Positions 20,074-64,000 of a stretch of DNA of 64,000 bases are shown here, piece after piece; position 1 is the first letter of the stretch, and each line of letters starts with the position of its first letter. The notes under the pieces were generated by a model. The model was not told where the DNA came from. It made no database searches and saw only the letters and a program-made list of their open reading frames with translations. The translations under genes were made by a program, and so were the position numbers. Source of the DNA: a virus (Duplodnaviria > Heunggongvirae > Uroviricota > Caudoviricetes); IMG/VR virus record IMGVR_UViG_3300005748_000132, positions 20,180 to 84,179 of that record; one strand, given 5' to 3'.

Positions 20074-20773
20074 TAGAAAAAATTTAATTTATGTTCTCAG
20101 AGATTGTAATGACAATGTTAGATATGTTGGTCAAACTATTAGAGGTAAGTTTAGATTTAAAGATCACGTGAGAAAAAGAAACAGGAAACAACCTGTTTCC
20201 TGTTTTTTAAAAAAATGTATAGATCAAAAAATAAAGTATCGATTTGAAATAATAGAATACTGTCCAAAATCTATACTAGACGATAGAGAAATATTTTATA
20301 TAAAATACTATAGAAACTTGGGATGTAACTTATTGAACCTAACCGACGGAGGGAGTACCACTAAAGGATATAAGCACACTAAGGAAGCTTTGAAGGTTAT
20401 GTCTGACAATCAAAAAGGTACACCATCTAATTTCAAAGGTAGGAAACATACCGAAGAAACTAAAAGAATTTTTTCCTATAAAGCTAGTCTGAGAACAGGA
20501 AATTTAAACAACTTTTATGGAAAGAAACATTCAGAAGAATCGAAAAATAAAATGTCTGAGACTAAAAAAAGAATGTTCAAAGATAAAACACTAATTCCTC
20601 ATAATTTAAGACCTATACTATGTCTATATAATATGAAAACGTACAATAATTCTAGAGAAGCTGCCGAAGACCTTAATGTACCATCTAGTTCTATAAGATC
20701 GGTACTTCAAGGAAAATCTAGAGTATTATACGGAAAATATAAATTTATATATAAGGAAGATTACGATGGCTGA
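20063..20773 (+). CDS. GIY-YIG homing endonuclease (free-standing, I-TevI-like)
   Basis: N-terminal GIY-YIG motif (IYVLRDCNDNVRYVGQT…RFKDH). Two NUMOD3-like repeats (GRKHTEETKRIFS, GKKHSEESKNKMSE). Inserted between two structural genes and overlaps both. Confidence 0.75.
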   Translation: MKISRKNLIYVLRDCNDNVRYVGQTIRGKFRFKDHVRKRNRKQPVSCFLKKCIDQKIKYRFEIIEYCPKSILDDREIFYIKYYRNLGCNLLNLTDGGSTTKGYKHTKEALKVMSDNQKGTPSNFKGRKHTEETKRIFSYKASLRTGNLNNFYGKKHSEESKNKMSETKKRMFKDKTLIPHNLRPILCLYNMKTYNNSREAAEDLNVPSSSIRSVLQGKSRVLYGKYKFIYKEDYDG

Positions 20774-23700
20774 TCCTAAATGGGAAGAAACAAAAGAATT
20801 AGATTCAGATATTCCTAAGTTTGAGGACACTGAAGACATTATTGATGAACCTGTATCTAAAATAGAATCTTCTGTTAGAGGATTGGTTAGCGGTGCATCC
20901 TTGGGTTTTGCTGACGAGCTACAAGCAGCTTTATCTGCTATTGGTGAAGACGTACTAGGTGGATATCAAGAAGGTCAACCTAAAGTAACTTTCGATGAAG
21001 AAGGTCGTCCAGTAGTTCCAGAAGGTACTGGAGCAGGTTATGAAGAGAACTTAGAAGAAACTAGAGCAGCTTATAAAAAAGCTCAAGAAGACAATCCTAT
21101 AACTTACGGAGCTTCAGAATTAGCTGGAGGTATCCTTCCCGGTTTAGCTACAGGTGGAGGAGCAGCAGTAGGTAAAGTAGGAGCAGGCTTAGTAAAAGAA
21201 GGAGCTGAACAAGCTATAAAAACTGCTATAGTAGAAGGTGGTAAGTTAGGAGCTAAATATGGAGCAGTATCTGGACTAGGTTACTCAGAAGGTGAAACTC
21301 CGTTAGAAGTAGCTGGTGATGTAGCAGCAGGAACAGCAGCAGGGGCTTTAGGCGGAGCTTTGATACCAGCAGCAGCTAAAGGAGCTAAGACTATAACTAA
21401 AGGTTCCACAGACGCTGTTAAAAGCTTATTAAGAAAACTTCCGGGAGCTGAAACTATAGAAGCTGGTTATAAATATGGTAGACTAGGTAGAGCTTTGAGT
21501 CAAGAGAATTTAGACGAAGATTTAGCTAATACTGCAAAAACTATTCTTGGTAATATTCAACAAAAGAAAAAAGATAATGACTTAATAGGACTCAAGCAAC
21601 AACTTGACGACTTGGGTTTCAAGGTCGATACAAAAGAAGCTATAAATGAAGCGATTGACGACCTTCAAAAAATAGAGTCGAAAGATTTCCTAAAACTTAA
21701 TAATAAGGAGATTCTTCCTAAGTTACAAGAGTTCTCAGGTATAAATCCTAGTGAAGAAAAACTCATGGAAAGAGCTTTACGCGACTCTCTAAAAAAGAAG
21801 CTACAATCTCAGTCAGCTCAAGAACAAGCTATTATAAAAGGTGAGAAATCACTAGCTAAAGAAGCTTTAAAAAGCGGAGAAGAGCTTCAGCAAATAAATG
21901 ATATAAAGAAGTCTATGGACGACTTAGGACTTCCTCTAGACACTACACAGGGTCAAATAGGCGGTGTAAAAGGTAAGTTTAGAACTCCAGAAGGTGAAGA
22001 AAGACTTAAGACGGTACTTTCTGACACTACAGAGTTTCAGCCTGAGATATCTAAATTGGTAGGACCAGATGGTAGACCTATTGTAACGACTAAGGATTTA
22101 GGTACTGGTAAAGTACAAGCTTTAGTTGGAGATGTACAAAAGAAGTTAGATGTTGACTTAGAGAATATGTCATTGGAGGATGTAGACTATCTTCGTAACC
22201 AATTAAACGAAGTAGTCAATTTAGAAAAAATGAAAGGTTCTGTTAAAGATCCTGTTATAAAAAGAGCTATGAACTTAGCTTCTAGACTTAAAGAGCTTTC
22301 TGATCAAGTTGTTGAGGGTTCAGGACAAACTGGACTTATCGACCGTAGAAAGACTTTCTCTGAACTATTTGGAGCAGAAGAACTCCTTGGAATCAAGGGT
22401 AGATTAGCTCCTACAAAAGAAGCTGACGAGTTTGCTAAGATTACTAACTTGATGGAAAAGCTAGGTGTAGAAGGTGGTATAAAAAAGAGAATGGAAAGAA
22501 GTAGAGCTTTGGAGCTTCTAGGTGAAGACGTAGTTCCTCAGAAACAAAGAGATCTTCTTGAAACTATTAGAACCTTAAATGCTAGGCAAGGATATGGGGA
22601 TGAGAATATCTCTAGATCAGGTATATACCAAAGAGTTGTAGGTACTGTTCCTAATATCGCAGGATTAGCTCAATCTAAAGCTAGTAAAATAATAAGTCCA
22701 GCTACGCGAGCTACAGAAGGCATTAAGAGAATGTCAGCTCAAGAACTAGGTGACTTTGGTAATAAGTTAGCTAACTCTAATAATCAAGGAGCTAAAGTTC
22801 TAGGTAATAGACTTTTAGAAGCTATGTCTCAAGACGGTGCTGCTCAGAACCAAATATTATGGTCACTATCTCAGTCTCCAGCTTTTAGAGAGCTAGTTAA
22901 AAGAAATGCAAATGTTGGACTAGAGGCTGAAGTTGCTGAATTAGAGCAGATGTCACCTTCTTTTGATGAAACTAATCCACAAGAGCAAGTAGATGTAGGA
23001 ACTGAAGTAGAGAACTCTGTATTAGCTCCTGAAGTAGAAACTTCGACAATAGAAGAACCTTCTAGAGAACCTAGTAGTGTCGCAAATATCGACGAAGCTC
23101 TAGATTTCATAACTAGTGACGTAATAGAAGGTGGATATCAAAACCAAGAAACCGACCAAGGTAATTTTTTAAATGGTAAAAACTTAGGTACTAACCACGG
23201 AATAACTCCACAGGCTTATTTGAATTACTATGGAGTTGAACCTAGTGAAGAAGATATGAGGAATCTTACAAAAGAACAAGCTAAAGAAATATACAAATCT
23301 GACTATTTACAAAAACCTAAGATTGATCAAATCCAAGACCCTAATCTTCAGACTGCTGTTATGGATTTTGGTATAAACTCAGGTTCTGACAGAGCTATAA
23401 AATATCTTCAAAACTTAGTGGGAGTACAAGCTGATGGAGTAATAGGACCAAAAACACTAGAAGCTATAAATAATTATCAAGGTGATATAGTGTCGGACTA
23501 TCTACAAACAAGAAGAGATTTCATTACCGAAATATCTAAAAATCCTAAATACAGTATGTATGAAAAAGGTTGGAATAATCGTATTGATACACTGGGAGAA
23601 ATGTTAAAGTCTGAAACTCCGACACTACAAGAACCTGTAGAAGAAGTAGAAGCTCCTTCAGAAGAACAAGTTCAAGACTTAGAAGACGTTATTGACAGAG

Positions 23701-23891
23701 TTAATCAGCAGCAGAGTTCTGGTGAAAACACACCTATGAGTCAACTTGATGAATTACTTGGTAAAATAGACCAGTTAAAGATCTCAGAAGCTGATAAAGA
23801 CGAGCTGGAAGTAGAAGCTACTAACATGGTAGGATACAGCGACGGACAGATACTGAAGGATAAAATAAGAAGACTACAAGGGTTGTCGTGA
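20766..23891 (+). CDS. large internal virion protein with C-terminal peptidoglycan-binding domain (1041 aa)
   Basis: Gly/Ala-rich N-terminal region; coiled-coil middle. C-terminal …GITPQAYLNYYGVEPSEEDMRNLTKEQAKEIYKSDYL…VDGVIGPKTLEAINNYQ… resembles predicted PG-binding domains (PF09374/PF01471 type). Confidence 0.55.
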   Translation: MADPKWEETKELDSDIPKFEDTEDIIDEPVSKIESSVRGLVSGASLGFADELQAALSAIGEDVLGGYQEGQPKVTFDEEGRPVVPEGTGAGYEENLEETRAAYKKAQEDNPITYGASELAGGILPGLATGGGAAVGKVGAGLVKEGAEQAIKTAIVEGGKLGAKYGAVSGLGYSEGETPLEVAGDVAAGTAAGALGGALIPAAAKGAKTITKGSTDAVKSLLRKLPGAETIEAGYKYGRLGRALSQENLDEDLANTAKTILGNIQQKKKDNDLIGLKQQLDDLGFKVDTKEAINEAIDDLQKIESKDFLKLNNKEILPKLQEFSGINPSEEKLMERALRDSLKKKLQSQSAQEQAIIKGEKSLAKEALKSGEELQQINDIKKSMDDLGLPLDTTQGQIGGVKGKFRTPEGEERLKTVLSDTTEFQPEISKLVGPDGRPIVTTKDLGTGKVQALVGDVQKKLDVDLENMSLEDVDYLRNQLNEVVNLEKMKGSVKDPVIKRAMNLASRLKELSDQVVEGSGQTGLIDRRKTFSELFGAEELLGIKGRLAPTKEADEFAKITNLMEKLGVEGGIKKRMERSRALELLGEDVVPQKQRDLLETIRTLNARQGYGDENISRSGIYQRVVGTVPNIAGLAQSKASKIISPATRATEGIKRMSAQELGDFGNKLANSNNQGAKVLGNRLLEAMSQDGAAQNQILWSLSQSPAFRELVKRNANVGLEAEVAELEQMSPSFDETNPQEQVDVGTEVENSVLAPEVETSTIEEPSREPSSVANIDEALDFITSDVIEGGYQNQETDQGNFLNGKNLGTNHGITPQAYLNYYGVEPSEEDMRNLTKEQAKEIYKSDYLQKPKIDQIQDPNLQTAVMDFGINSGSDRAIKYLQNLVGVQADGVIGPKTLEAINNYQGDIVSDYLQTRRDFITEISKNPKYSMYEKGWNNRIDTLGEMLKSETPTLQEPVEEVEAPSEEQVQDLEDVIDRVNQQQSSGENTPMSQLDELLGKIDQLKISEADKDELEVEATNMVGYSDGQILKDKIRRLQGLS

Positions 23892-30915: not shown

Positions 30916-31326
30916 TTAGTTACCACTACTTCCGTAAGAACCTTCACCTCTTTCAGTTTCAGAAAGCTCATCAACTTCTTCAAACTCTACCTTTGGAAAT
31001 GGTAATATGATAAGCTGTCCGATTCTGTCACCTACTTTGTAAGGATACTTACCTCTTAGAAACTTAAACGTAACTTCTCCACGAAATCCAGCATCGAGAA
31101 CACCTACTGAGTTACGGAGGGTTAGACCAGTTTTTGCGATACTACTCCTAGGGAAGATGAGTCCTACATGTCCCTCAGGTATTTCAAATGCAAGTCCTGT
31201 TCCGTAGACTATGTTCATACCTTCTATTTTCATACTGGTCGCTGTAAGGTCTAGTCCAGCGTCAAGGTCTTTTGCGTAACTTGGGATAACGACTTCTTCT
31301 ACTAGTTTTTTAATTTTTACTTTCAT
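30916..31326 (-). CDS. dut: dUTP diphosphatase (trimeric dUTPase)
   Basis: Motifs AGLDL, PRSS, VGVLDAGFRGEV. Confidence 0.85.
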   Translation of the reverse strand: MKVKIKKLVEEVVIPSYAKDLDAGLDLTATSMKIEGMNIVYGTGLAFEIPEGHVGLIFPRSSIAKTGLTLRNSVGVLDAGFRGEVTFKFLRGKYPYKVGDRIGQLIILPFPKVEFEEVDELSETERGEGSYGSSGN

Positions 31327-31873
31327 TTTTCTCCTCTAAAATATCAACTATGTGTTTTTCTACCATTTCTCCACATTCTATTATTTTGTAATTAATATTT
31401 ATAGAATCCATAAAGTCTTTTATCTCTATATCAAACTGTTTAGCTTCTTCCTCTGTTTGTAACCTACCAGAAGGGTTATATTCTTTCTGTCTAACTAAAA
31501 ATATATGTTCAACTTTATAATTATTATCTTTACAAAATTGATGATGTTGTTTTAATAAAACTCTACAAGCTCCAAATCCTTTTTCATATTTATCATACTT
31601 ATCTCCGTAGTATATTGATAATGCCATAGGTGAATCCGATATTATGAAATCCAATCCTTCTTTTATGTATTGTCTTTCTTTTCTAGCTTGTTTTGAAAAT
31701 ATATAAGATTGATCACCTTCTTTTATCTCTCTACCTTCCCACACCCATTCTTTTACATACTCTCTATTCATTTCACAATTATAACCTTTCTTTTTTAATA
31801 AGTTGAATATTCCAGCACAGGTTGTAGATTTTCCTGTTCCCGGTCCTCCCCATAGACATACAATTTTTCTCAT
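31310..31873 (-). CDS. P-loop nucleotide kinase-like protein (dNMP/thymidylate-kinase-like)
   Basis: Walker A GGPGTGKST near the N-terminus; overlaps dUTPase in a nucleotide-metabolism cluster. Confidence 0.45.
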   Translation of the reverse strand: MRKIVCLWGGPGTGKSTTCAGIFNLLKKKGYNCEMNREYVKEWVWEGREIKEGDQSYIFSKQARKERQYIKEGLDFIISDSPMALSIYYGDKYDKYEKGFGACRVLLKQHHQFCKDNNYKVEHIFLVRQKEYNPSGRLQTEEEAKQFDIEIKDFMDSININYKIIECGEMVEKHIVDILEEKNESKN

Positions 31874-43270: not shown

Positions 43271-43502
43271 TCTCAGGTTCCCATTGTAGAGCTGATACTA
43301 TAGTATATTCATCTTGATTACCTATCCAAGAATCTTCATCACCTTCGTACTCAGGAGTCATTACAACCTGTTCGATGACTGGAGGTAGTATTCCAAAACC
43401 CTCCATTGTTTTTAATATATAGTCAGCTAGACCTTTTACATCTTTAGACCTATTCAGATTTATTGCCATTTCTATAACATCAACCATTTCGCTTCTTTTC
43501 AT
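43263..43502 (-). CDS. hypothetical protein (79 aa)
   Basis: ORF overlapping the polymerase start. Confidence 0.35.
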   Translation of the reverse strand: MKRSEMVDVIEMAINLNRSKDVKGLADYILKTMEGFGILPPVIEQVVMTPEYEGDEDSWIGNQDEYTIVSALQWEPEND

Positions 43503-43888
43503 AACTCTCCTTCGCTTTCTTTTTCAGTCTTGTTTATGACTACTTCATAAATAGCTTTTCCTAACTTTTGCATCTCTTTTTTCATGTTAGCAGAACCTCT
43601 ACTCTTACCGTCCCAAATAAGTAATAAAGCGTCTGCATATTCAGCCATCTGTCTATTTCTGATCGGTCCAGCAGCTTTACCGTGAGTTTCCCAGTCGGCA
43701 GAAAATCTCTTAGTTGGAAACCCATAAACCTTTTCTGCAAAGTAACAAGCTGAAGCATCTACTCCTTTAGCTCCTCCTTCTACGATTTCTGTTACTATTT
43801 CAAATAATCCGTAAATATCCAAAATATCTTTAATCATACCTGACATTCGATTAGGGAATGTTCTTTTACCTGCTATAATTAACCTCAT
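43499..43888 (-). CDS. SLOG-superfamily protein (DUF2493-like)
   Basis: GGAKGVDASACYFAE glycine-rich loop and …FSADWETHGKAAGPIRNRQM… closely resemble the phage DUF2493/SLOG (DprA/LOG-like Rossmann) family. Confidence 0.5.
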   Translation of the reverse strand: MRLIIAGKRTFPNRMSGMIKDILDIYGLFEIVTEIVEGGAKGVDASACYFAEKVYGFPTKRFSADWETHGKAAGPIRNRQMAEYADALLLIWDGKSRGSANMKKEMQKLGKAIYEVVINKTEKESEGEL

Positions 43889-48562: not shown

Positions 48563-49285
48563 TTATTTAACACCTTTGCATATTTTAACAAGCTCTGACA
48601 TCTGAGAAACCTCTACTTCTATGAAATTATCCTTATCTTTTAGTTCATTCCACATTTTAACTTGAAGGTTATCATAAACTTTTTTAGATAGTCTTTTAGT
48701 TTTCAAACCTAAAGATTTCAATTGATTCTTAACGATTGTAAAATCTAGTTTAGACTCTTTTACAGCTATTTTAAAATCATACTTTATATCTTCTTTTGAC
48801 AATAAACCTTCACTTATAGCTTTAAATATTTCATTAGGTGATAGATATTTTCCAAATTTAAACATGTAAACTTTAAACTCTATTGAAGATTTACCTAAGT
48901 TTCTGATATGTAGTAATCTTTCTTTTGAAGTTTTTGCTATTCTACTACAGTGGTTAAAAAACTCCTCAGGTTCCATTGACTTCTTCATGTAATTACAAGT
49001 GGAGCAACAACTCACAACATTATCATCAGTATACCCTTTAGAATTATCCATCCTATCTATACCATTTCTAACTAAACCCTTAGAGTCTTCTTTTGGTGGA
49101 TTTCCGCAATAAAAACAGTTACTATAAATAAGATGTCTAAATCTGTTCTTGCTTATATTATGATCAAAGTCTTTTTCATAAATACGCTTTAATAGAACCT
49201 TATATTCAGCAGCTTCTTTTTTGTTTAATTCATAATCTTCGTTTCTATTCAAAGTTTGTTTTTTAAAAAAGTTATTTCTTTTCAT
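48563..49285 (-). CDS. HNH endonuclease-like protein (possible homing/nicking endonuclease)
   Basis: Cys-rich HNH-like core: CFYCGNPP…NGIDRMDNSKGYTDDNVVSCCSTCNYMK. Confidence 0.5.
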   Translation of the reverse strand: MKRNNFFKKQTLNRNEDYELNKKEAAEYKVLLKRIYEKDFDHNISKNRFRHLIYSNCFYCGNPPKEDSKGLVRNGIDRMDNSKGYTDDNVVSCCSTCNYMKKSMEPEEFFNHCSRIAKTSKERLLHIRNLGKSSIEFKVYMFKFGKYLSPNEIFKAISEGLLSKEDIKYDFKIAVKESKLDFTIVKNQLKSLGLKTKRLSKKVYDNLQVKMWNELKDKDNFIEVEVSQMSELVKICKGVK

Positions 49286-49333
49286 TTAAACCTCCTCTGA
49301 ATATTGTACCATCTTACTATGAAAAAGTCAACA

Positions 49334-50347
49334 CTACAACTCTCCTTCTTCAGGTTTACCACCTCCGTATACATCATCAAGCTCTACTTCTTTACCATCT
49401 TTACCTTTTATAGTTCTGGACAGGTCGAACTGAAAGCTCTTATATTTCTCTTCGTTCTGTCTAAGTTGTAAAACCTTCTCATAATACATCTTGAATATAG
49501 CTACTTCTTCTGTGTTCAGATCAATAAGATCTTCTGTGTCAAAGTCATACCTCATTAGGTAGTTCATTCCTTCTTTGACTTTATCTCCTTTGTTTTTATA
49601 GCGAATCTTTGCATATTGCCATCCCATTACAGGAAGTTTACACTCTTTCTCAACTCTTCTCAAAGGCTGAAAGATGGTTATTATGTTAGTCATTAAGTTT
49701 TCAAATCTAGAACAACCAAAACACCCATTCTTTGGTACTGGTAAATCACCGACACCTTTATCTTTTGTAGTTTGTGACAAGATAAAACCATGAGTATCTA
49801 ACTCTACTGTCATATTTTTTACTTGTCTTGCTACAGGATTATAGTCCGCACTATTACCAATATGAATTTCGTGAAAATGGTCAAGTACATAAGCATGAAT
49901 TGTTGTATTCAAGGTATTTTTAATATTAGTCAACTCTATCTTTATATCTTCTACTGTCATATCTTTAGACCTACCTTCTTCGTCATAATTCTCGACGATG
50001 AAAAGTCTATCTGCTAATTCTGGCTCATCTTCCGTAGCTTTGAACCATTTCTCAGCTATCTCAGAAGCTGTCATTTCCAGTGAAACGAATACTACTATAC
50101 CTTCAGAATTATTTCTAAGAATATGTTTAAGTATCCACAAAGAAAAAGTTGTCTTTCCTACCCCCGGTCCGGCTAAACCTCCTGTACAATCTCCTCTCTG
50201 CAATTTCCTTACTAGAGCATCTATTTTCTCAGGTCCGTGAATAAACTTACTAGGGTCTATCTTGCCGCTAACAGCTCCACTTCTCTTCAAGTCACCCAAG
50301 CTTCTTATACCTGCTTGCTTCTTCCTCTTCTGTTCAAAATCAGTCAT
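49334..50347 (-). CDS. DnaB-like replicative helicase (C-terminal RecA-fold domain only)
   Basis: GGLAGPGVGKTTFSLWIL…VVFVSLEMTASEIAEKW matches the DnaB Walker A / H1a region. Confidence 0.6.
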   Translation of the reverse strand: MTDFEQKRKKQAGIRSLGDLKRSGAVSGKIDPSKFIHGPEKIDALVRKLQRGDCTGGLAGPGVGKTTFSLWILKHILRNNSEGIVVFVSLEMTASEIAEKWFKATEDEPELADRLFIVENYDEEGRSKDMTVEDIKIELTNIKNTLNTTIHAYVLDHFHEIHIGNSADYNPVARQVKNMTVELDTHGFILSQTTKDKGVGDLPVPKNGCFGCSRFENLMTNIITIFQPLRRVEKECKLPVMGWQYAKIRYKNKGDKVKEGMNYLMRYDFDTEDLIDLNTEEVAIFKMYYEKVLQLRQNEEKYKSFQFDLSRTIKGKDGKEVELDDVYGGGKPEEGEL

Positions 50348-50522
50348 TACCTAACTCCTCTATCATCTTACTAACAGCTATGTCAATAGCCTCATTAACA
50401 AGCTTCTTCCTAATTCGCCACTTCCTACTATGTGAACCTCGTCTACCTTTTAGAATAGTCCTCGAAGCTTCTACTAGTTTTTGGTACTGGTCTTCTGTGA
50501 AGTATACCAATTTACCTTTCAT
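50340..50522 (-). CDS. small basic protein (60 aa)
   Basis: Sits in the operon between the helicase and Macro genes, with overlapping junctions. Confidence 0.35.
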   Translation of the reverse strand: MKGKLVYFTEDQYQKLVEASRTILKGRRGSHSRKWRIRKKLVNEAIDIAVSKMIEELGND

Positions 50523-50992
50523 TCATCCTCCATATCAGGGTCATACACGTAAACATCTAAATCGTCACCTGTAGCGTCGTCGATAATTCGCGACACTATT
50601 TCCCAGTTACCACCAGCTAGTCCACAACCTATTTTAGGTATTGCTACTTCTTTTTTACCTAAGTTTTTAAGTTCTTCAAATACATTGTATATAGCATCGT
50701 AACTTACATATTTCTCACCGTCGTAACCGTATTTTTCTTGAGTATAGCAATTTAATACAACCTTTCCATTTTCTTGAGGTGACTGGGTACAATAACCTAA
50801 GCGGTCAGACTTTCTTGGAAAAAACTCACTATCCTGTACATACCAATAATGGTAGTCTTCTTTTACTTTCGGATACTTAGTAAACAAAACCTTAGCTACT
50901 CCGCTACCCATTCTATTCTGACAATTCACACCGTGAGCTATGTATTTTTGTTCAGCGTTTAGTATAGAGTCTTTTATATACTTAACTATCAC
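50519..50992 (-). CDS. Macro-domain protein (ADP-ribose-binding/processing)
   Basis: YIAHGVNCQNRMGSGVAKVL and VAIPKIGCGLAGGNWEIVSRII match macro-domain binding loops; overlaps the Nampt-like gene by 11 nt. Confidence 0.6.
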   Translation of the reverse strand: MIVKYIKDSILNAEQKYIAHGVNCQNRMGSGVAKVLFTKYPKVKEDYHYWYVQDSEFFPRKSDRLGYCTQSPQENGKVVLNCYTQEKYGYDGEKYVSYDAIYNVFEELKNLGKKEVAIPKIGCGLAGGNWEIVSRIIDDATGDDLDVYVYDPDMEDE

Positions 50993-52472
50993 TTAATCTT
51001 CCTCTGATTTCACTTAACGAAGTTTCTTTTAAAAATTTACCATCTTTGTAAATAGTTTGTAGAAGGTCTGGAGCATGAGACCTTCTAGGATTATTATCAT
51101 CAAAAACTTCTAGTTCATCTCCGACCAATGACCTAACTACCTGTACTCTACCTTTAGCTGACTTCTTAGTTCCGTCGTCAGTAATGGGGTCTTTGAAGAT
51201 GGCTCTCTCTTGTCCGTTTACCGTAACACTTGTAGCTTTCATTGCAAAACCTAAACTATCTCTTGTGATCATTTGGTAAGTGTAGCTTCCAATCCCTAAC
51301 ACTACGTTAGTTGAAGCAAATCCTTTAGCTTTAAGTCTTTCAACAATTTCCTTAGTTCTTCCAATAGTTATAGAGTCACCATAAATAGCTCCTACTTTTG
51401 GATTTAACACCTTGTAACCTTTTTCTGTTACCGTACCTCCGAAAGTATCATAGAGCATTTCTACGACCCCTTTTTGTGCTCTAGGGTCACTATTATTTGG
51501 GTCACCACATAGAATATCTACAGGGTTTCCAGAATCAGGTCGAATAACTACCTTATCAGGAGCTTCAGGGACTCCTCCATCTCTAGCTAAGATAGAGTCT
51601 TTTAAGCTAGGGATAATATTTTCCATTACGTTCCATAAGTCCCAAGTATCCGACACTATAGAAACAATTCCTGTAGGATATAAGTCTTCAATAAACCTTC
51701 TATATGTTTCTCGTTCACTTTCTTTTTCTCCAGCACACATTACCGAATGTTCAGAAGCTGGTACAGAACAAGCCACTAACTCTTTAGTGACATCAGCGTT
51801 ATAATATTGTTCAGCATATTGTACAGCAGGTAGAGTATCACTTCCTACAAAGCTTAAAATATGACCTAATCCACTCCTAGCTGCATCTTCTGGACCGCTC
51901 ATTCCGCGCATTGAAAAGTCGTGCCCTTGGAACTCTACTCCCATTATCGAACCAGTAGTCTCGATAGCAGCTTCATCTAGTATCTTTCTATATTCTCTAG
52001 CAATACTAGCAGTAGTACAAGGTTTCCATAATAGAGCTGACATAATTGTTTCTAAGTAGTTTGTTAGCCAGAAGAACTCATCTTTAGTATTTTCTACTGT
52101 AAACATTGGTACTCTGAAAGGGACTAAAGTACCTTCTTCTAAAGCTTTAACTTCAATCGGAAGATGACCTAAATCATGTAAATCTTCTAAATGTTTTGTG
52201 TAGACGTTAGGATTGAATAAATAAGCAGCTACTTGTCTCTTATACTCCGACACTATTTCTTCTTTAGGTCTTGAGAAAAACTGTTTATCAAAAAGCTCAG
52301 TGATTTCTTTTAAAGCTCCTTGAAAACCAAAAGCTACTACTTCTTTTACTTGAGGAAGATGTTTTCCTGATCTTGGGGTCCATGTAGAGTACACCTTTTC
52401 AGTACCTTCAGGGTATTGTACTCTGTGACTCAGCTTATAACCGTCTGCTGCCAATGTTGCTAATAAGTTCAT
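50982..52472 (-). CDS. nicotinamide phosphoribosyltransferase-like protein (NadV/Nampt family; candidate Namat of NARP1)
   Basis: N-terminus NLLATLAADGYKLSHRVQYPEGTEKVYS matches the Nampt/NadV signature; 496 aa; start overlaps the Prs-like stop (ATGA). Confidence 0.85.
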   Translation of the reverse strand: MNLLATLAADGYKLSHRVQYPEGTEKVYSTWTPRSGKHLPQVKEVVAFGFQGALKEITELFDKQFFSRPKEEIVSEYKRQVAAYLFNPNVYTKHLEDLHDLGHLPIEVKALEEGTLVPFRVPMFTVENTKDEFFWLTNYLETIMSALLWKPCTTASIAREYRKILDEAAIETTGSIMGVEFQGHDFSMRGMSGPEDAARSGLGHILSFVGSDTLPAVQYAEQYYNADVTKELVACSVPASEHSVMCAGEKESERETYRRFIEDLYPTGIVSIVSDTWDLWNVMENIIPSLKDSILARDGGVPEAPDKVVIRPDSGNPVDILCGDPNNSDPRAQKGVVEMLYDTFGGTVTEKGYKVLNPKVGAIYGDSITIGRTKEIVERLKAKGFASTNVVLGIGSYTYQMITRDSLGFAMKATSVTVNGQERAIFKDPITDDGTKKSAKGRVQVVRSLVGDELEVFDDNNPRRSHAPDLLQTIYKDGKFLKETSLSEIRGRLSDS

Positions 52473-53242
52473 ACTTCTCCTTTTCTATTAAATATTCTAT
52501 TAATTCCCGATTCTCTTAATGTGTCTACTCCCTTTGAGTATATTCCGTGAGTTGTGTATAGATTAACCTCTTTTGCTCCCAAAGTCAAGAGTTTTTCTGC
52601 TGCTAATTTAAAAGTCATACCTCCGTCACATAAGTCATCTACAATAAGAATAACCTCTCCTTCGATACTAATAAGTTCGTTCAGAAATAAGTTTTTTATA
52701 TAACCTGTACTTTGATCTCTATCTTTTGATAAGCTACAACTAGGAAGACTGTTCAGAAAAGGATAACTCTTATATCTTTTCTCAGCACCTTTGTCTGGGT
52801 AGCATATTAGTGTAGGATTTGTTTCTAAAGCACCGAGTATCGCACTTGCTGGAAATATCGAACTTATAATACCCTGACTAAATTCCTTACTATGTTCATC
52901 ATAAGTAGCTATACTTTTTATAGAAGGTAGAGTCTTTAAAAGTTTCATAAAAGTATATTTTGCAAAAGTTGTTTGGTTAGAAACTCTCTTATCTTGTCTT
53001 GCATAAGGTAGTGTGTCTATGAACAAACAATCTACCATCAATCCTCTACTTTGTAATAAGTCACATAGTTGAGCTAAATGAATAAACTCTGATTCATTTT
53101 CAAAGTCCCAAATTATATCCTGCTCCAAAACTTCCCTTCTTGTGAAAACTTCTTCTGGTATCTTCCAAACCTGACTTGTCCCATCAGGGAAAATAGTTGG
53201 TTTTATCTCGTAACCGTTTAACTTAATCATCTTATCTCCCAT
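52469..53242 (-). CDS. ribose-phosphate pyrophosphokinase-like protein (Prs family; candidate ADPR pyrophosphokinase Adps of NARP1)
   Basis: FIDTLPYARQDKR (PRPP-synthetase P-Y-x-R-Q-D-R) and ILIVDDLCDGGMT (PRPP-binding loop). The probable start is the second ATG at 53230, which has a GGGAGAT SD. Confidence 0.8.
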   Translation of the reverse strand: MGDKMIKLNGYEIKPTIFPDGTSQVWKIPEEVFTRREVLEQDIIWDFENESEFIHLAQLCDLLQSRGLMVDCLFIDTLPYARQDKRVSNQTTFAKYTFMKLLKTLPSIKSIATYDEHSKEFSQGIISSIFPASAILGALETNPTLICYPDKGAEKRYKSYPFLNSLPSCSLSKDRDQSTGYIKNLFLNELISIEGEVILIVDDLCDGGMTFKLAAEKLLTLGAKEVNLYTTHGIYSKGVDTLRESGINRIFNRKGEV

Positions 53243-53248
53243 CTCACA

Positions 53249-53257
53249 TTATACCAC
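53249..53257 (-). promoter_or_regulatory. extended -10 promoter (TGGTATAAT) for the Prs/Nampt/Macro operon
   Basis: The minus strand reads …TTTGGTGGTATAATGTGAGATGGGAGATAAGATG. TGnTATAAT lies ~20 nt upstream of the start codon. Direct repeats GTTACAA-N4-GTTACAA (top strand 53274..53291) sit in the -35 region. Confidence 0.5.
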
Positions 53258-53367
53258 CAAAGTCCCAACACTATTGTAACACGTTTGTAACCTTTACACA
53301 ACCTTAAACCTAGTTCAGCGTCGTACTCACCTCGTTTTTGTATTGTCGGAAGTTTCAACACTACTCC

Positions 53368-53694
53368 TTATACACACTCAGGGTTAGTACAAGGTTCTTC
53401 GCAAAAAGGACATTTCTTGACACTAACTCCTACAAACTCGTTCACATCTTGTATCTTCCTGTTACAAAGCTCTTTATGCTCAGGAAACTCGTCTCGTATA
53501 AACTCATAAACCACGGTCAAAGGTATCATACAAAGTGTACAGTATTCTGACACAGTCTTCTCAGTCACACCTTTCTTTTTAAAGTAGGTTATAACTTCTG
53601 GTTTTCTACTTAGGAAGTCTTTAGCTTTGAACATGTTTATCCTTTTATAAATGGTCAGCGACCAACTCACAACTTTACTTTTATCCGAAGTCAC
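53368..53694 (-). CDS. Cys-rich zinc-binding protein (108 aa)
   Basis: CTLC … CPFCEEPCTNPEC. Confidence 0.4.
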   Translation of the reverse strand: MTSDKSKVVSWSLTIYKRINMFKAKDFLSRKPEVITYFKKKGVTEKTVSEYCTLCMIPLTVVYEFIRDEFPEHKELCNRKIQDVNEFVGVSVKKCPFCEEPCTNPECV

Positions 53695-53751
53695 TTAATT
53701 ACGTTCCAGTCTGAACTCGATAGTGTCGGAAGGTATGTGACACCTTATTTC

Positions 53752-54114
53752 TTAATCCAACTTAGCTGTCAATCCAAAACGCATATAATCCAAATCTCCA
53801 CCTTTTTCAAACCTAGCTTTAGTAGTCTCATACTTCTCTATCTTCTCTTCGTCGTCAGTTCTAGCAATCATCTCTTCAAACTTAGTAACCATGTTCTTAG
53901 CACTAATTGTTTTTTCAAAAGGTACTCCGTTAATCGTAATCTCTACTTCCTTATCCAGACTTATATAATACTGAGACTTACCTTGACTGTCTTTGTCCTT
54001 AGCTAAGATCAATACCCCTATGTCTACGTACCCACTTGTTTTTTTCTTACTCATTTGTTTCTCCTTCTTTAATGTCAGATTTCTCGACGTTATCTTGTTT
54101 ATATTGTAACTCAC
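53752..54114 (-). CDS. hypothetical protein (probable start at internal MSKKK, ~54054)
   Basis: The track start overlaps the upstream ORF by 68 nt; the internal ATG removes the overlap. Confidence 0.4.
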   Translation of the reverse strand: MSYNINKITSRNLTLKKEKQMSKKKTSGYVDIGVLILAKDKDSQGKSQYYISLDKEVEITINGVPFEKTISAKNMVTKFEEMIARTDDEEKIEKYETTKARFEKGGDLDYMRFGLTAKLD

Positions 54115-54385
54115 CTATCACATTAATAGCATATTGCACACTTGTCTCAATAGCAGCGAACATACCTCCTAGGAACTCTCGCTCACTCTCAGGTAAAGCT
54201 CTAGCGTCAGTATCGTCTGTCCTAGTTGTAATATAGTTCACAGAAGCCTTTAAAGCCCTTCTAAGCTGTTTTGTACTAAGTCCGTCTACTTGGTCATGTA
54301 GTCTACCTTGAAGCTCATTTAGGGTCATTTGAAGCCCTTTAACGTATGCTTGTGATTTCTCTTCTCTAGTTAGTTCTTTAATCAT
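54047..54385 (-). CDS. hypothetical protein (112 aa)
   Basis: ORF; ATGA coupling to the upstream gene. Confidence 0.4.
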   Translation of the reverse strand: MIKELTREEKSQAYVKGLQMTLNELQGRLHDQVDGLSTKQLRRALKASVNYITTRTDDTDARALPESEREFLGGMFAAIETSVQYAINVIGELQYKQDNVEKSDIKEGETNE

Positions 54386-54969
54386 TATAACTCCTCGTCT
54401 TCAGTAACTTCTTGCTCAGGTTTTACACTCTTTCTAAAGCTGTTACCTGACTTCTTCTCGTCTTTCTTTTTTACTGGTGACTTAACTTCTTTTTTAGCTT
54501 TAGTGTCCGACTTTTCCTGACCTTCTGGTAGGTCTTCTCCTGCGTAGATATATAAACCTAGTCCATGAAGCCCTAAACCTTTTACAATAGCCCTTTGAAT
54601 AGTTTTGTTGATATCCATCATCGTAGCAGCTTTGACCTCTTTTTCACCGTATTTAGTTTTAAAGGTGTAATCTACAGTTTTCATAGCATTATTGGCTCCG
54701 TCCATTACAGGAAGGTATACAGTATGATTAATTCCTTCGATCTCTACTCCGACTTTCACCATGATTCCTTCGTCACTTGTAAAATAAGGAAGTCCTTGCT
54801 CATTTTCTGCGACACTAACTTGAACGTCAGGGTAAAGTTTCTTAGCTTCAGCCCAAGCCCAAGCCCAAGATAGATATGAAAGCTTGACTCTTCCTGTGTC
54901 CTTAATCTCTACTTTGTCGCTAACGTCTAGTTTATTTAGCTTATCGAATGTTGATTCTTGTTTGCTCAT
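54385..54969 (-). CDS. possible Rad52/Sak-like single-strand annealing protein with K-rich tail
   Basis: Segments LSYLSWAWAWAEA and RAIVKGLGLHGLGLYIYAGEDLP are reminiscent of the Erf/Sak/Rad52 recombinase core; lysine-rich C-terminus. Weak, recalled from memory only. Confidence 0.3.
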   Translation of the reverse strand: MSKQESTFDKLNKLDVSDKVEIKDTGRVKLSYLSWAWAWAEAKKLYPDVQVSVAENEQGLPYFTSDEGIMVKVGVEIEGINHTVYLPVMDGANNAMKTVDYTFKTKYGEKEVKAATMMDINKTIQRAIVKGLGLHGLGLYIYAGEDLPEGQEKSDTKAKKEVKSPVKKKDEKKSGNSFRKSVKPEQEVTEDEEL

Positions 54970-61437: not shown

Positions 61438-62052
61438 TTAATTATAATAACCAATCCCTAGACCATTTTCTATAGCATCTTGAAAAATCTCTTTGTACCT
61501 AGTTTTTCTTTCTTCATGAGTTATGAAAAAAACTCGAAAGTTACTACTCAAAACTATAGCTAAACTTAGTATTTCTTTTTGATGCGTTTCGTTAACGTGT
61601 TTAAAGTCGAAGAATATTTTCTTATCTATTTTAGAAGCTTCTATTTCAAAAAGCAAGTCTCTTAGCAAGTCAAGTCCTAAATCGTAACTATTATTTTTAG
61701 AAACTACTTTTCCTTTGTAGGTTTTGTCATGGTTTAAGACTATATCGTCTTTTGCCGACACTATATCAAATTCTACTATCTTGAAACACTCATGGTTTTC
61801 GTAGTCTAATATTCCTAAGAAACCTTTTATTGTATTGTCTTCAAACTCTCTTAAGTCTCCGCCTATTCTATGACCTATGTTAACTATGCAATTACCATTT
61901 TCATCAAGCAAGTTATCTTTTATAGATGGTTGGTACTCTTCTACTGGTTTACCACAACTTATTAAAATTAGCAATAATAAAAATTTCATATTGTCCTTTA
62001 TGCATTGTGTCAACTTGTTTAAAAAAGAGGCGAACTTAATCGCCTCAAACAC
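61438..62052 (-). CDS. glycerophosphodiester phosphodiesterase (GDPD)-like lipoprotein
   Basis: Lipobox LILISCGK; NIGHRIGG (H-R-G catalytic motif); EFDIVSAKDDIVLNHD (E-x-D…HD). Confidence 0.5.
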   Translation of the reverse strand: MFEAIKFASFLNKLTQCIKDNMKFLLLLILISCGKPVEEYQPSIKDNLLDENGNCIVNIGHRIGGDLREFEDNTIKGFLGILDYENHECFKIVEFDIVSAKDDIVLNHDKTYKGKVVSKNNSYDLGLDLLRDLLFEIEASKIDKKIFFDFKHVNETHQKEILSLAIVLSSNFRVFFITHEERKTRYKEIFQDAIENGLGIGYYN

Positions 62053-62061
62053 AAGGAGTAA

Positions 62062-62694
62062 TTAGTCAACTTCGCAAGAAGTCGCTACACTTAGTCTATG
62101 TAAGATGTGACCTAATAATCTACTCTCACAAACTATTTCTAAATCTTCGACACTATTAGTCAGGTCTATAATATCATTTTCAAGTTGGTTAATTTGTACA
62201 ATAGTTTCATTGATCGAAACAGTGTTAGCGTTGTCACCTTCCTCAATCATTTGCTCCAACCTAGCTACTTCAATAGCTAACTCGGTATGGGCTTTCTGTA
62301 CAGCATTGTTAATAGCTTGTGAAAGCTCCGTATTTACCCTAGAAAGCTCTCTAGAAAGCTCTCCTATACTCAGAGTAGTGCTATTAAAAGAAGCTCTCAT
62401 TTCGTCTCTTAGAGCGTCAATTTGAGCTTGTAAATCAGCTAAGTCTGTCTCTAACTCGTCTACCCTTTCATCAGTGTCTTCTTTTGTACCTAAGATATCG
62501 TTACCAATGTGCCTAGGAAGCTGTCCGAACCCTTCAATAACTTGACCTATGTTTTCTACTCCGTTGTGGAGTTCTCTATCTACAGTTTGTTTAGCGTTTG
62601 TTAACTCTCTGTCAACGTCTTGCTTGATTTGAGTAAGTTCCTTACCGCAGGATACTAGAGTTAATAGTGTTGTAATTGTTAATAATTTTTTCAT
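62062..62694 (-). CDS. coiled-coil lipoprotein (210 aa)
   Basis: Lipobox LTLVSCGK; long heptad-repeat helices. Confidence 0.5.
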   Translation of the reverse strand: MKKLLTITTLLTLVSCGKELTQIKQDVDRELTNAKQTVDRELHNGVENIGQVIEGFGQLPRHIGNDILGTKEDTDERVDELETDLADLQAQIDALRDEMRASFNSTTLSIGELSRELSRVNTELSQAINNAVQKAHTELAIEVARLEQMIEEGDNANTVSINETIVQINQLENDIIDLTNSVEDLEIVCESRLLGHILHRLSVATSCEVD

Positions 62695-62707
62695 GTTCGT
62701 TTTCTCC

Positions 62708-63340
62708 TTAGTTGTTAAATTGTGCTTTGAAAGCTTCGTAACTTTCTTTACTTATTTCTATTTCTTTACCGTCAATTATGATGGTCTTAGTTTGCTTAAA
62801 AACTATTCCAGTAGTTTCCTCTAGTATCTTAGCGTCGAAATTAGGTACACTTTCTAAAAACTCTCTGTCTTCTTTTGTAACTTCCTTACCGTTATAAGTT
62901 GACTTGTTTACTTTTAAATAACCTCCTGTAGTTTTGTAAGTAGGGTTATCAATTTTCTCTTGTTCTGTCATTTTATTTTCATATACCCATTCACATAATA
63001 GTTTTTGATATTTGTATATAATACTTCTAAATTTATTGTGATTTTCTCCATGAAACTCCCAACCACTGTCTTTATTAAATAGTCTAACAGTAGGTATATT
63101 AGTGTTACAGTCACCTGTGTTATAGTCACCTGTGTTACGGCTACCTGTGTTATAGTGACCTGTGTTAAAGTCACCTGTGTTATAGTTACCTGTGTTATAG
63201 TGACCTGTGTTACAGTGACCTGTGTTGGAGCTACCTGTGTTACGGTTACCTGTGTTATAGTCACCTGTGTTACAGTAACCTGTGTTATAGTAACCTGTGT
63301 TAAAGTCACCTGTGTTATAGTAACCTGTGTTAGTTGACAT
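62708..63340 (-). CDS. pentapeptide-like tandem-repeat protein (NTG-x-x)x16 plus C-terminal globular domain
   Basis: N-terminal 80 aa is (N-T-G-[YDHNS]-[YFCRS]) x ~16, encoded by the 15-nt tandem repeat at ~63102..63333; C-terminal ~130 aa is non-repetitive. Confidence 0.55.
   Translation of the reverse strand: MSTNTGYYNTGDFNTGYYNTGYCNTGDYNTGNRNTGSSNTGHCNTGHYNTGNYNTGDFNTGHYNTGSRNTGDYNTGDCNTNIPTVRLFNKDSGWEFHGENHNKFRSIIYKYQKLLCEWVYENKMTEQEKIDNPTYKTTGGYLKVNKSTYNGKEVTKEDREFLESVPNFDAKILEETTGIVFKQTKTIIIDGKEIEISKESYEAFKAQFNN
63102..63333 (-). repeat. 15-nt tandem DNA repeat (~15 units, consensus on top strand N-ACCTGTGTTA-N-AG-N) inside CDS
   Basis: Read directly from the sequence. Confidence 0.9.
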
Positions 63341-63618: not shown

Positions 63619-64000
63619 CTATAAGTCTCTTAATATTTTTTCTAAAGCTATTTCTATCATACTTTTTATTAACGGTATATCTTCGTTGTTGTTATACTCA
63701 CTGTCACTAAAAACAGTATCTAATTGATCAATAGTATAGTCTCTACAACCTATATGAATACTAGAGTAGGTTACAGTAATAGGGTATTGAAAACCTAGTA
63801 TGTTAAAATAGTGACTAGTTTTTGAAATTTCGTCAAAATCTCGCACCCTAGCATTACCATACACCCTAGCATTATCATACACCCTAGCATTATCATACAC
63901 CTCAGCATTACCATACACCCTAGCATTACCAGACACCTCAGCATTACCATACACCCAAGCATTACCAGACACCCAAGCATTACCAGACACCCAAGCATTA
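63619..64000 (-). CDS. hexapeptide-repeat (G/D-N-A-x-V-x) protein, 5' partial at window edge
   Basis: N-terminal GNAWVSGNAWVYGNAEVSGNARVYGNAEVYDNARVYDNARVYGNARV encoded by an 18-nt tandem repeat (~63847..64000+). The repeat reaches the window end, so the true N-terminus is probably outside the window. Confidence 0.5.
   Translation of the reverse strand, partial: NAWVSGNAWVSGNAWVYGNAEVSGNARVYGNAEVYDNARVYDNARVYGNARVRDFDEISKTSHYFNILGFQYPITVTYSSIHIGCRDYTIDQLDTVFSDSEYNNNEDIPLIKSMIEIALEKILRDL
63847..64000 (-). repeat. 18-nt tandem DNA repeat (top-strand unit CCTAGCATTACCATACAC and variants), >=8 units, continues past window end
   Basis: Read directly. Confidence 0.9.

Follow-up and report, generated by a model that had tools for sequence, protein, structure and literature searches.

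We analysed a 64,000-nucleotide stretch of an uncultivated tailed-phage genome (here called the window; positions 20,180 to 84,179 of IMG/VR record IMGVR_UViG_3300005748_000132) that carries a minus-strand operon for a Prs-like, a Nampt-like and a Macro-domain protein. We consider it about 75% probable that this locus is a NARP1-AP operon (NAD+ reconstitution pathway 1 plus an associated phosphatase) of an uncultivated phage of ~84 kb. The evidence consists of homology, diagnostic residues, gene linkage, and the absence of a nicotinamide mononucleotide (NMN) adenylyltransferase (NMNAT) from the open reading frames (ORFs) that were scanned. Many bacterial defences kill infection by cleaving NAD+, and the operon would rebuild host NAD+ afterwards. 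From published homologues that are 28 to 57% identical, we infer the following enzymatic steps and, with them, an anti-defence phenotype. The aRES defence, a RES-type NAD+ phosphorylase, would yield nicotinamide and ADP-ribose (ADPR)-1''-phosphate, and the Macro-domain protein, acting as an Adpp, would strip the 1''-phosphate to give ADPR, the product that SIR2, TIR and SEFIR defences are expected to yield directly. Adps, the Prs-like protein, would then pyrophosphorylate ADPR at the 1'' position, with ATP as the donor, to make ADPR-PP. Namat, the Nampt-like protein, would condense ADPR-PP with nicotinamide to form NAD+.

The NARP1 pathway has been defined in two preprints (bioRxiv 10.1101/2024.02.11.579819 and 10.64898/2026.01.28.702374). 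According to the second (Osterman et al., bioRxiv 10.64898/2026.01.28.702374, 28 January 2026), aRES splits NAD+ into nicotinamide and ADPR-1''-phosphate, the latter being a product that NARP1 is unable to use; a Macro gene lies no more than two genes from the operon in 15% of NARP1 phages; Vibrio phage Gary encodes an Adpp, a Poa1p-like protein, that dephosphorylates ADPR-1''-phosphate to ADPR; and NARP1-AP overcomes aRES only with all three genes intact. An earlier note on this DNA had proposed the addition of a Macro gene to a NARP1-type gene pair as a three-component variant. The novelty that this implied does not hold, since the three-gene system has already been published as NARP1-AP, with both genetics and biochemistry. 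The locus is a new and divergent example of that system and brings no new mechanism.

The genes of the apparent transcription unit are as follows.
52469..53242, minus strand: Prs-like (Adps-like) gene, ORF of 257 amino acids (aa); a start at 53230, giving 253 aa, is likelier
50982..52472, minus strand: Nampt-like (Namat-like) gene, 496 aa
50519..50992, minus strand: Macro-domain (Adpp-like) gene, 157 aa, GTG start; predicted ADPR-1''-phosphate phosphatase
50340..50522, minus strand: small ORF, 60 aa, translationally coupled
49334..50347, minus strand: DnaB-like helicase gene (C-terminal ATPase domain), 337 aa, the last gene of the apparent unit

All five ORFs are present at the minus-strand coordinates and in the order given by the earlier note, and profile searches bore out its family calls for the first three proteins and for the helicase far beyond chance. 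The overlapping junctions that it described for the Prs-like, Nampt-like and Macro genes are also there. From the Prs-like to the DnaB-like gene, the overlaps are 4, 11, 4 and 8 nucleotides (nt), and three of them are ATGA. The 4-nt Adps-like/Namat-like overlap is one such ATGA, and the Macro gene lies directly downstream, overlapping the Namat-like gene by 11 nt. The three genes are translationally coupled, and they are apparently cotranscribed with the replicative helicase gene.

The Nampt-like protein matched PF04095 (9.5e-42), PF18127, phrog_448 (5e-199) and NF006629 (561 bits) in profile searches. Its best match among solved structures is the Namat of SPbetaL1 (PDB 9w5x/9w5w, 601 bits), compared with ~270 bits for human NAMPT and 221 bits for Xanthomonas Nampt. 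It is 55 to 57% identical to SPbetaL1 Namat and 43 to 48% identical to Gary Namat; identity to the Nampt of the T4-like Vibrio phage D490, which lacks an adjacent Adps, is ~31%. Namat is separated from Nampt by a motif of the selectivity-clamp helix (SCH), GSXfXfXfTRD, and the clamp of Namat is formed by aromatic residues at motif positions 3 and 7 together with a stacking residue of the SCL (PMC12774641). In the proteins compared, the motif reads as follows.
Namat-like protein of the window: GSYTYQMITRD
SPbetaL1 Namat: GSFTYQYNTRD
Gary Namat: GSFTYQYVTRD
Xanthomonas Nampt: GGALLQKVDRD
T4-like Vibrio phage D490: GGGLLQQSDRD (Nampt-type)

The window protein thus has Tyr at position 3 and, deviating in part at this single site, Met at position 7, and it lacks GGxLLQxxDRD, the Nampt-type motif of the Nampt/NadV proteins of the second pathway, NARP2. 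The clamp motif is present in all 120 of the closest Namat homologues. Sixteen of the 20 NAD+-contact residues of SPbetaL1 Namat are identical in the window protein. Among the others, R40 is replaced in the SCL by the pair Lys37-His38, which also occurs in the experimentally validated Gary Namat, A362 is replaced by Ser (as in Gary), and F392 is replaced by Tyr. When the protein was compared by tblastn with 2,046 phage records, the ranking fell into two groups: an upper group at 36 to 56% identity that comprises NARP1 phages (Kayvirus, SPbeta-like, ICP1, Felixounavirus, Pakpunavirus and mycobacteriophages) and a lower group at 28 to 31% identity that comprises large T4-like phages. We conclude that, by its sequence, the Nampt-like protein is a Namat.

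Three observations concern the Namat family more broadly. PDB entries 9ke8/9keo, deposited as "nicotinamide phosphoribosyltransferase", score 481 bits against the window Namat, and their clamp, GAQTYQRNTRD, lies between the Namat and Nampt types. One of the 120 closest homologues (P0354, 59% identity) is chromosomal, on a 5.5-Mb contig annotated as Aquimarina sp. Aq107; it could represent a bacterial or prophage NARP1, and it is a possible hint that low-GC marine Flavobacteriia are the hosts (the GC content of the window is ~35%). The Prs-like and Nampt-like proteins also match different halves of phrog_12872, a 547-aa profile named nicotinamide phosphoribosyl transferase, which implies that some phages have natural fusions of Adps and Namat.

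The Prs-like protein contains the motifs PYARQDKR and VDDLCDGGMT, both of which had been pointed out earlier, and it matched PF00156 and phrog_619 (1e-47). It scored 75.6 bits against TIGR01251, a curated model of Prs, below the cutoff of 113 bits; E. coli Prs scored 423 bits, and the validated Adps proteins of SPbetaL1 and Gary scored 106 and 100 bits. We built a neighbour-joining tree in which the bacterial Prs sample was gammaproteobacterial, with at least 80% identity, and the archaeal and human Prs were partial sequences taken from alignments. Canonical Prs (bacterial, archaeal and human) formed one clade in 489 of 500 bootstrap replicates. The family of the window protein was a clade in all 500 and joined Prs in 28. 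SPbetaL1 Adps grouped with Prs in 189 of the 500.

The structures of ICP1 Adps define acceptor residues, Lys185 on a hairpin, a remodelled PP loop and the loss of alpha11-alpha12 (PMC13586617). We mapped the ICP1 residues through an alignment in which the ICP1 numbering reproduces that of the published study. F18, R87, H121, D161, K185, D212, D213 and D216 are all kept in the window protein. In the PP loop, C201, G203 and F207 (ICP1 C215, G217 and F221) have the Adps states, whereas the Prs states at these positions are I/A, Thr and L/I; the loop reads DGGMT with Cys before Asp, unlike the DT(G/C)GT of canonical Prs. The hairpin has a K-x-R-D-x-x-TG-x-I pattern. The protein ends before the C-terminal alpha11-alpha12 module, and it likewise lacks the helix insert that bacterial Prs has at the N terminus. 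The nearest cultured homologue, from ECO319P1, is 39% identical and is followed by an adjacent Namat with the motif GSYTYQYVTRD. The best solved-structure match was Sulfolobus Prs, in a copy of PDB without the ICP1 Adps structures. Namat adjoins 97% of Adps-clade genes and rarely adjoins bacterial prs (Osterman et al., bioRxiv 10.1101/2024.02.11.579819). These data support assignment of the Prs-like protein as a divergent, Adps-type enzyme outside canonical Prs, and it probably represents a deep-branching Adps subfamily. Three of the tests told Adps and Prs apart: the TIGR01251 score, the tree and the residue mapping.

The Macro-domain protein matched PF01661 (7.7e-8, 32.7 bits; cutoff, 22 bits) and phrog_335 (1.4e-45, 157 bits). 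Gary Adpp scored 171 bits over the same region of the phrog_335 profile, and the other Adpp members listed in the NARP1-AP Table S1 scored 123 to 207 bits. The window protein is 31% identical to Gary Adpp (E, 2e-18) and keeps every invariant column of the sampled Table S1 set. Its nearest characterised relative in PDB is yeast Poa1p (40 bits), itself an ADPR-1''-phosphate phosphatase, the activity predicted for the window protein. At the positions of Poa1p S30 and F152, the residues altered in 6lft and 6lfu, both the window protein and Gary Adpp have Arg and Ala. Operationally, Osterman et al. (bioRxiv 10.64898/2026.01.28.702374) define NARP1-AP by a PF14519, PF01661 or PF20016 gene that is no more than two genes away from NARP1; the window Macro gene is a PF01661 gene immediately adjacent to the pair. 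We predict from these similarities that the Macro protein is an Adpp, homologous to the characterised enzyme of Gary. The earlier suggestion that Macro feeds the pathway by freeing ADPR from ADPR-1''-phosphate is thereby supported, and it agrees with Osterman et al. 2026.

We compared the locus with the known NARP1 systems. The Gary NARP1-AP has the same three families in one operon, with its Macro protein in the same phrog_335; the H, N, G, Q, P, G and W columns of Adpp are conserved, the Lys-His pair in the SCL of Namat is identical, and the predicted function is the same. The gene order is Adps-Adpp-Namat in Gary and Adps-Namat-Adpp in the window, with other orders in Table S1. Identities are low (~28 to 34% for Adps, 43 to 48% for Namat and 31% for Adpp), and the window phage is uncultivated and known from sequence. 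Rheinheimera phage vB_RspM_Barba19A (MK719730, 84.6 kb), which is in the NARP1-AP Table S1, resembles the window phage in genome size, its DNA polymerase is 46% identical to that of the window phage, and all three of its genes are adjacent on the early/replication strand. Its order is Macro-Adps-Namat, with identities to the window proteins of 33%, 31% and 51%, respectively. The Barba19A proteins are thus no closer than those of unrelated phages, indicating that the cassettes are not simple orthologues. With the two-gene NARP1 systems of Bacillus SPbetaL1, Escherichia Bas63 and Vibrio ICP1 (Osterman et al. 2024; PMC12774641; PMC13586617), the window shares the Namat motif and contacts, the Adps residues identified in ICP1 and the lack of a C-terminal Prs module. 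It differs from them in the additional, coupled Macro gene, in an Adps that is 28 to 31% identical, and in Met rather than Tyr at Namat position 7.

Gene linkage was determined in six metagenomic relatives with Adps identities of 46 to 67%. Adps and Namat are adjacent in all six, although in one of them an HNH gene lies between the two. In five of the six, Namat is followed within 0 to 3 small ORFs by a Macro gene, and these include relatives with unrelated flanks; in the remaining one (L093, 7219..8385), an RtcB RNA ligase gene takes the place of Macro directly after Namat. The same DnaB-like neighbour is present in relatives L004 and L005. Linkage of Macro to NARP1 is thus near-constant in this lineage (5/6, compared with 15% of NARP1 phages overall). 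When the locus was run by megablast against 50,697 phage records, nothing matched, and hence it has no close relative in culture. Judged by DNA polymerase, the nearest cultured phages are Vibrio phage 1.084.O, Nitrincola phage 1M3-16 and the Rheinheimera Barba phages (46 to 48%). For this uncultivated, probably marine lineage of phages of roughly 85 kb, metagenomes supply more than 100 relatives, on contigs of ~80 to 100 kb.

Two other features recur around the cassette. HNH homing-endonuclease genes lie beside or between Adps and Namat in L093 (5253..5747), L009 (3184..3675) and L090 (4070..4504), which suggests frequent endonuclease-mediated turnover. RNA-repair genes recur near the Adps-Namat module; in L005 (9796..12819), the helicase gene is followed by genes for a PolyA_pol-family nucleotidyltransferase and for T4 Rnl1- and Rnl2-like ligases.

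Several observations weigh against a NARP1-AP assignment. For Adps, the tree recovered no single Adps clade and did not order the Adps subgroups; identity is 28 to 34% to validated Adps and 21 to 27% to canonical Prs; and pairwise BLAST discriminated weakly, with 58 to 79 bits for validated Adps (58 bits for SPbetaL1 Adps) and 54 bits for E. coli Prs. Phrog_619 was rejected as a discriminator between Adps and Prs, since E. coli Prs (193 bits) outscored the window protein (164 bits). The adenine contact F92 of ICP1 is replaced by V83 in the window, at a position that also varies among other Adps. For Namat, the adenine-stacking Y396 of SPbetaL1 (clamp position 7) is Met401, the sole unusual contact. 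The 120 closest homologues have Y (78), F (23), M (13) or H (6) at position 7, and Met is a recurrent variant there and not a private defect. Single clamp mutations of Namat reduce in vitro activity by no more than 1.3- to 1.7-fold (PMC12774641). For Macro, the fold is equally near Poa1p (TM score, 0.74), DarG (0.74) and TARG1 (0.71); the closest cultured homologues (~40% identity) adjoin a valyl-tRNA synthetase modifier gene in T4-like phages rather than NARP1; and phrog_335 is common in T4-like phages, where its occurrence away from NARP1 indicates that the family has NARP1-independent roles. Lastly, the NMNAT scan was confined to the window, and the source, a JGI contig of 84,179 bp, extends ~20 kb beyond it.

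The Macro observations raise the alternative that NARP1 is present and that Macro is merely co-located with it, removing ADP-ribose from DNA, RNA or protein (and so countering ADP-ribosyltransferase defences such as DarT) or processing some other ADPR derivative. We regard this as unlikely, though worth weighing. The AlphaFold2 model of the protein (pLDDT, 91.9) matched BT1257, DarG, Poa1p and TARG1 in Foldseek, all with TM scores of 0.71 to 0.80, and so the fold alone cannot separate a phosphatase from a glycohydrolase; yeast Poa1p, human TARG1 and bacterial DarG share the macrodomain subclass fold of the window protein at 0.71 to 0.75. The best NCBIfam match is DarG, at 42 bits and far under the cutoff, and Gary Adpp gives an equally weak match. 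The neighbourhood of the T4-like homologues and the RtcB gene that stands in for Macro in L093 are also in keeping with a separate role. Against it, the catalytic residues K84 and D125 of TARG1 (sequence checked against PDB 2lgr) align to Q85 and A126 in the window protein, exactly the Gln/Ala of the validated phosphatase Gary Adpp. All of the NARP1-linked Macro proteins examined (Table S1) have Gln plus Ala or Gly at these positions. We take the catalytic Lys of DarG to be equivalent to TARG1 K84. The Macro gene also overlaps Namat by 11 nt, and its linkage persists in five of the six relatives despite different flanks. Deletion or inactivation of the homologous Macro abolished only the aRES-specific phenotype (bioRxiv 10.64898/2026.01.28.702374).

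A further reading retains NARP1-AP and changes its substrate: the Macro/Adps pair may process an undescribed NAD+ breakdown product other than, or besides, ADPR-1''-phosphate. The near-constant Macro linkage, the deep-branching Adps and the Met residue in ~11% of the closest Namat homologues are the reasons for raising it, and we consider it improbable. If true, it would imply an unrecognised NAD+-cleaving defence in the hosts.

Ordinary NAD+ salvage is very improbable. In it, the Prs-like protein would make phosphoribosyl pyrophosphate (PRPP), a NadV would make NMN, and a phage or host NMN adenylyltransferase would complete the synthesis, as in classical or NARP2-like pathways. The Pfam and NCBIfam names of the two proteins are indeed Prs and Nampt/NAPRT, Namat keeps PRPP-dependent NMN synthesis in vitro (PMC12774641), and the ~20 kb beyond the window counts in favour of this reading. 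NARP2 (Nampt plus NMNAT; Vibrio phage KVP40) and NARP3 (PnuC plus a NadR-like protein; Bas30) likewise replenish NAD+ in phages against depleting defences, and the Nampt of NARP2 is a paralogue of Namat. However, profile scans of 85 window ORFs (80 plus the five operon proteins) found no CTP_transf_like (NMNAT), NUDIX or PnuC family, which argues against NARP2 and NARP3, and the single NadR-like signal covers a kinase part only. The clamp motif and the structure-match scores are those of a Namat and not of a Nampt, and the Prs-like protein fails TIGR01251, has a different PP loop and a truncated C terminus, and lies outside the Prs clade. The adjacency of Namat to 97% of Adps-clade genes also speaks against salvage, as does the finding that no phage has both NARP1 and NARP2 (Osterman et al., bioRxiv 10.1101/2024.02.11.579819). 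The combination that the earlier note had named as pointing to classical salvage, canonical Prs and NadV clades together with a phage NMNAT, was thus not what we found, and its proposal of a NARP1-type NAD+ reconstitution module is upheld by every test made at the level of sequence.

It is hardly credible that Macro clears ADPR-1''-phosphate or Appr>p from RNA repair or tRNA splicing (the native role of Poa1p), unrelated to defence: Poa1p is its closest characterised homologue and relatives carry Rnl1, Rnl2, a PolyA_pol-family nucleotidyltransferase or RtcB near the module, but the window scan turned up neither a 2'-phosphotransferase (Tpt1/KptA) nor an RNA ligase family, and Macro is tightly coupled to Namat rather than to RNA-repair genes.

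The NadR-like signal comes from a stand-alone P-loop kinase gene.
31310..31873, minus strand: AAA_28 (PF13521) kinase, phrog_2107 "thymidylate kinase"
In NadR-like profiles its match is confined to the kinase part, covering positions 168 to 301 of 346 in the NadR-like NMNAT PHROG, and on this ground it was rejected as an NMNAT. It could conceivably act as a nucleoside or nicotinamide-riboside kinase. Relative L004 has a homologue.

We examined the operon region for signals of transcription and translation.
53248..53256, minus strand: extended -10 promoter-like element TGGTATAAT, an exact match upstream of the operon; its function is predicted
49303..49331, minus strand: next promoter-like site (TTGACT, 17 nt, TG-TACAAT), just after the DnaB-like gene; it marks the downstream boundary of the unit
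30535, 47104, 49303, 53248, 58586 and 60741, all minus strand: copies of TGGTAYAAT, mostly at gene junctions

The extended -10 element upstream of the operon exists as the earlier note described, with coordinates one base lower than the 53249..53257 given there. That the operon is transcribed from it is a prediction: a generic sigma-70 scan of the operon region showed no enrichment (17 sites, compared with 20.2 expected), although TGGTAYAAT is over-represented in the window and occurs on the minus strand only. Its six copies compare with 1.13 expected, and none of 100 shuffles reached six. We conclude that TGGTAYAAT is probably the -10 element of early/middle promoters of the phage. There is no convincing terminator between the element upstream of the operon and the next promoter-like copy past the helicase gene. 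An Rfam scan of 49000..54500 found no riboswitch; the single match, CRISPR-DR41 (E, 0.49), is at chance level. A five-gene transcription unit running from the Prs-like to the DnaB-like gene is therefore plausible. The -10 element stops only 5 nt short of the ATG at 53242, which makes the ATG at 53230 the likelier start of the Prs-like gene. The ATG at 53230 has a GGGAG Shine-Dalgarno sequence and fits both the 253-aa database protein P0001 and the MIKLNG N terminus of relatives.

The DnaB-like protein at the end of the unit matched PF03796 (5e-9) and phrog_19 (3.8e-15). The 60-aa ORF gave a weak, sub-threshold match to RHH_3 only. It is not kept in the metagenomic relatives, which have other small ORFs or none at the same position, and it is probably outside the pathway. 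The gene at 48563..49285 (minus strand), after the helicase gene, is HNH/endonuclease VII-like and has its own promoter.

The window as a whole contains 103 tightly packed ORFs and no tRNAs. The plus strand carries the tail and lysis genes, and the minus strand carries those for replication and nucleotide metabolism, including genes for ribonucleotide reductase, dUTPase, a phrog_1252 DNA polymerase, a single-strand annealing protein, a PD-(D/E)XK nuclease and a Clp protease. Most of the large plus-strand ORFs (1551, 1403, 588 and 544 aa) have no PHROG match. The 1041-aa product of an ORF at 20766..23891 (plus strand) seems to join a structural region at its N terminus to an endolysin-like Glyco_hydro_108/peptidoglycan-binding region (phrog_315), and it is probably a tail-associated lysin. 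In-frame tandem repeats at 63102..63332 (15 nt, 15.4 copies) and 63844..64000 (18 nt, 8.7 copies) sit in a run of ORFs of ~205 to 210 aa (61438..63340) and in the next ORF; one of these ORFs matches Pentapeptide_2, and a pentapeptide protein is also annotated in Barba19A. Adjoining the DNA polymerase gene, 43499..43888 (minus strand) encodes a 129-aa YAcAr/YspA SLOG protein (PF10686, 30 bits; cutoff, 28.2 bits) with a weak DprA-like tail. The predicted ligands of SLOG domains derive from nucleotides or NAD, and this protein could be another player in signal or metabolite conflicts.

The value of the locus is confirmatory and comparative. It extends NARP1-AP counter-defence to an uncultivated phage lineage, and its divergent Adps, Namat and Adpp sequences could help to define the true substrate-specificity residues of these enzymes. 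In this lineage the phosphatase is nearly always linked to the pathway, suggesting that RES-type NAD+ phosphorylase defences matter in the hosts.

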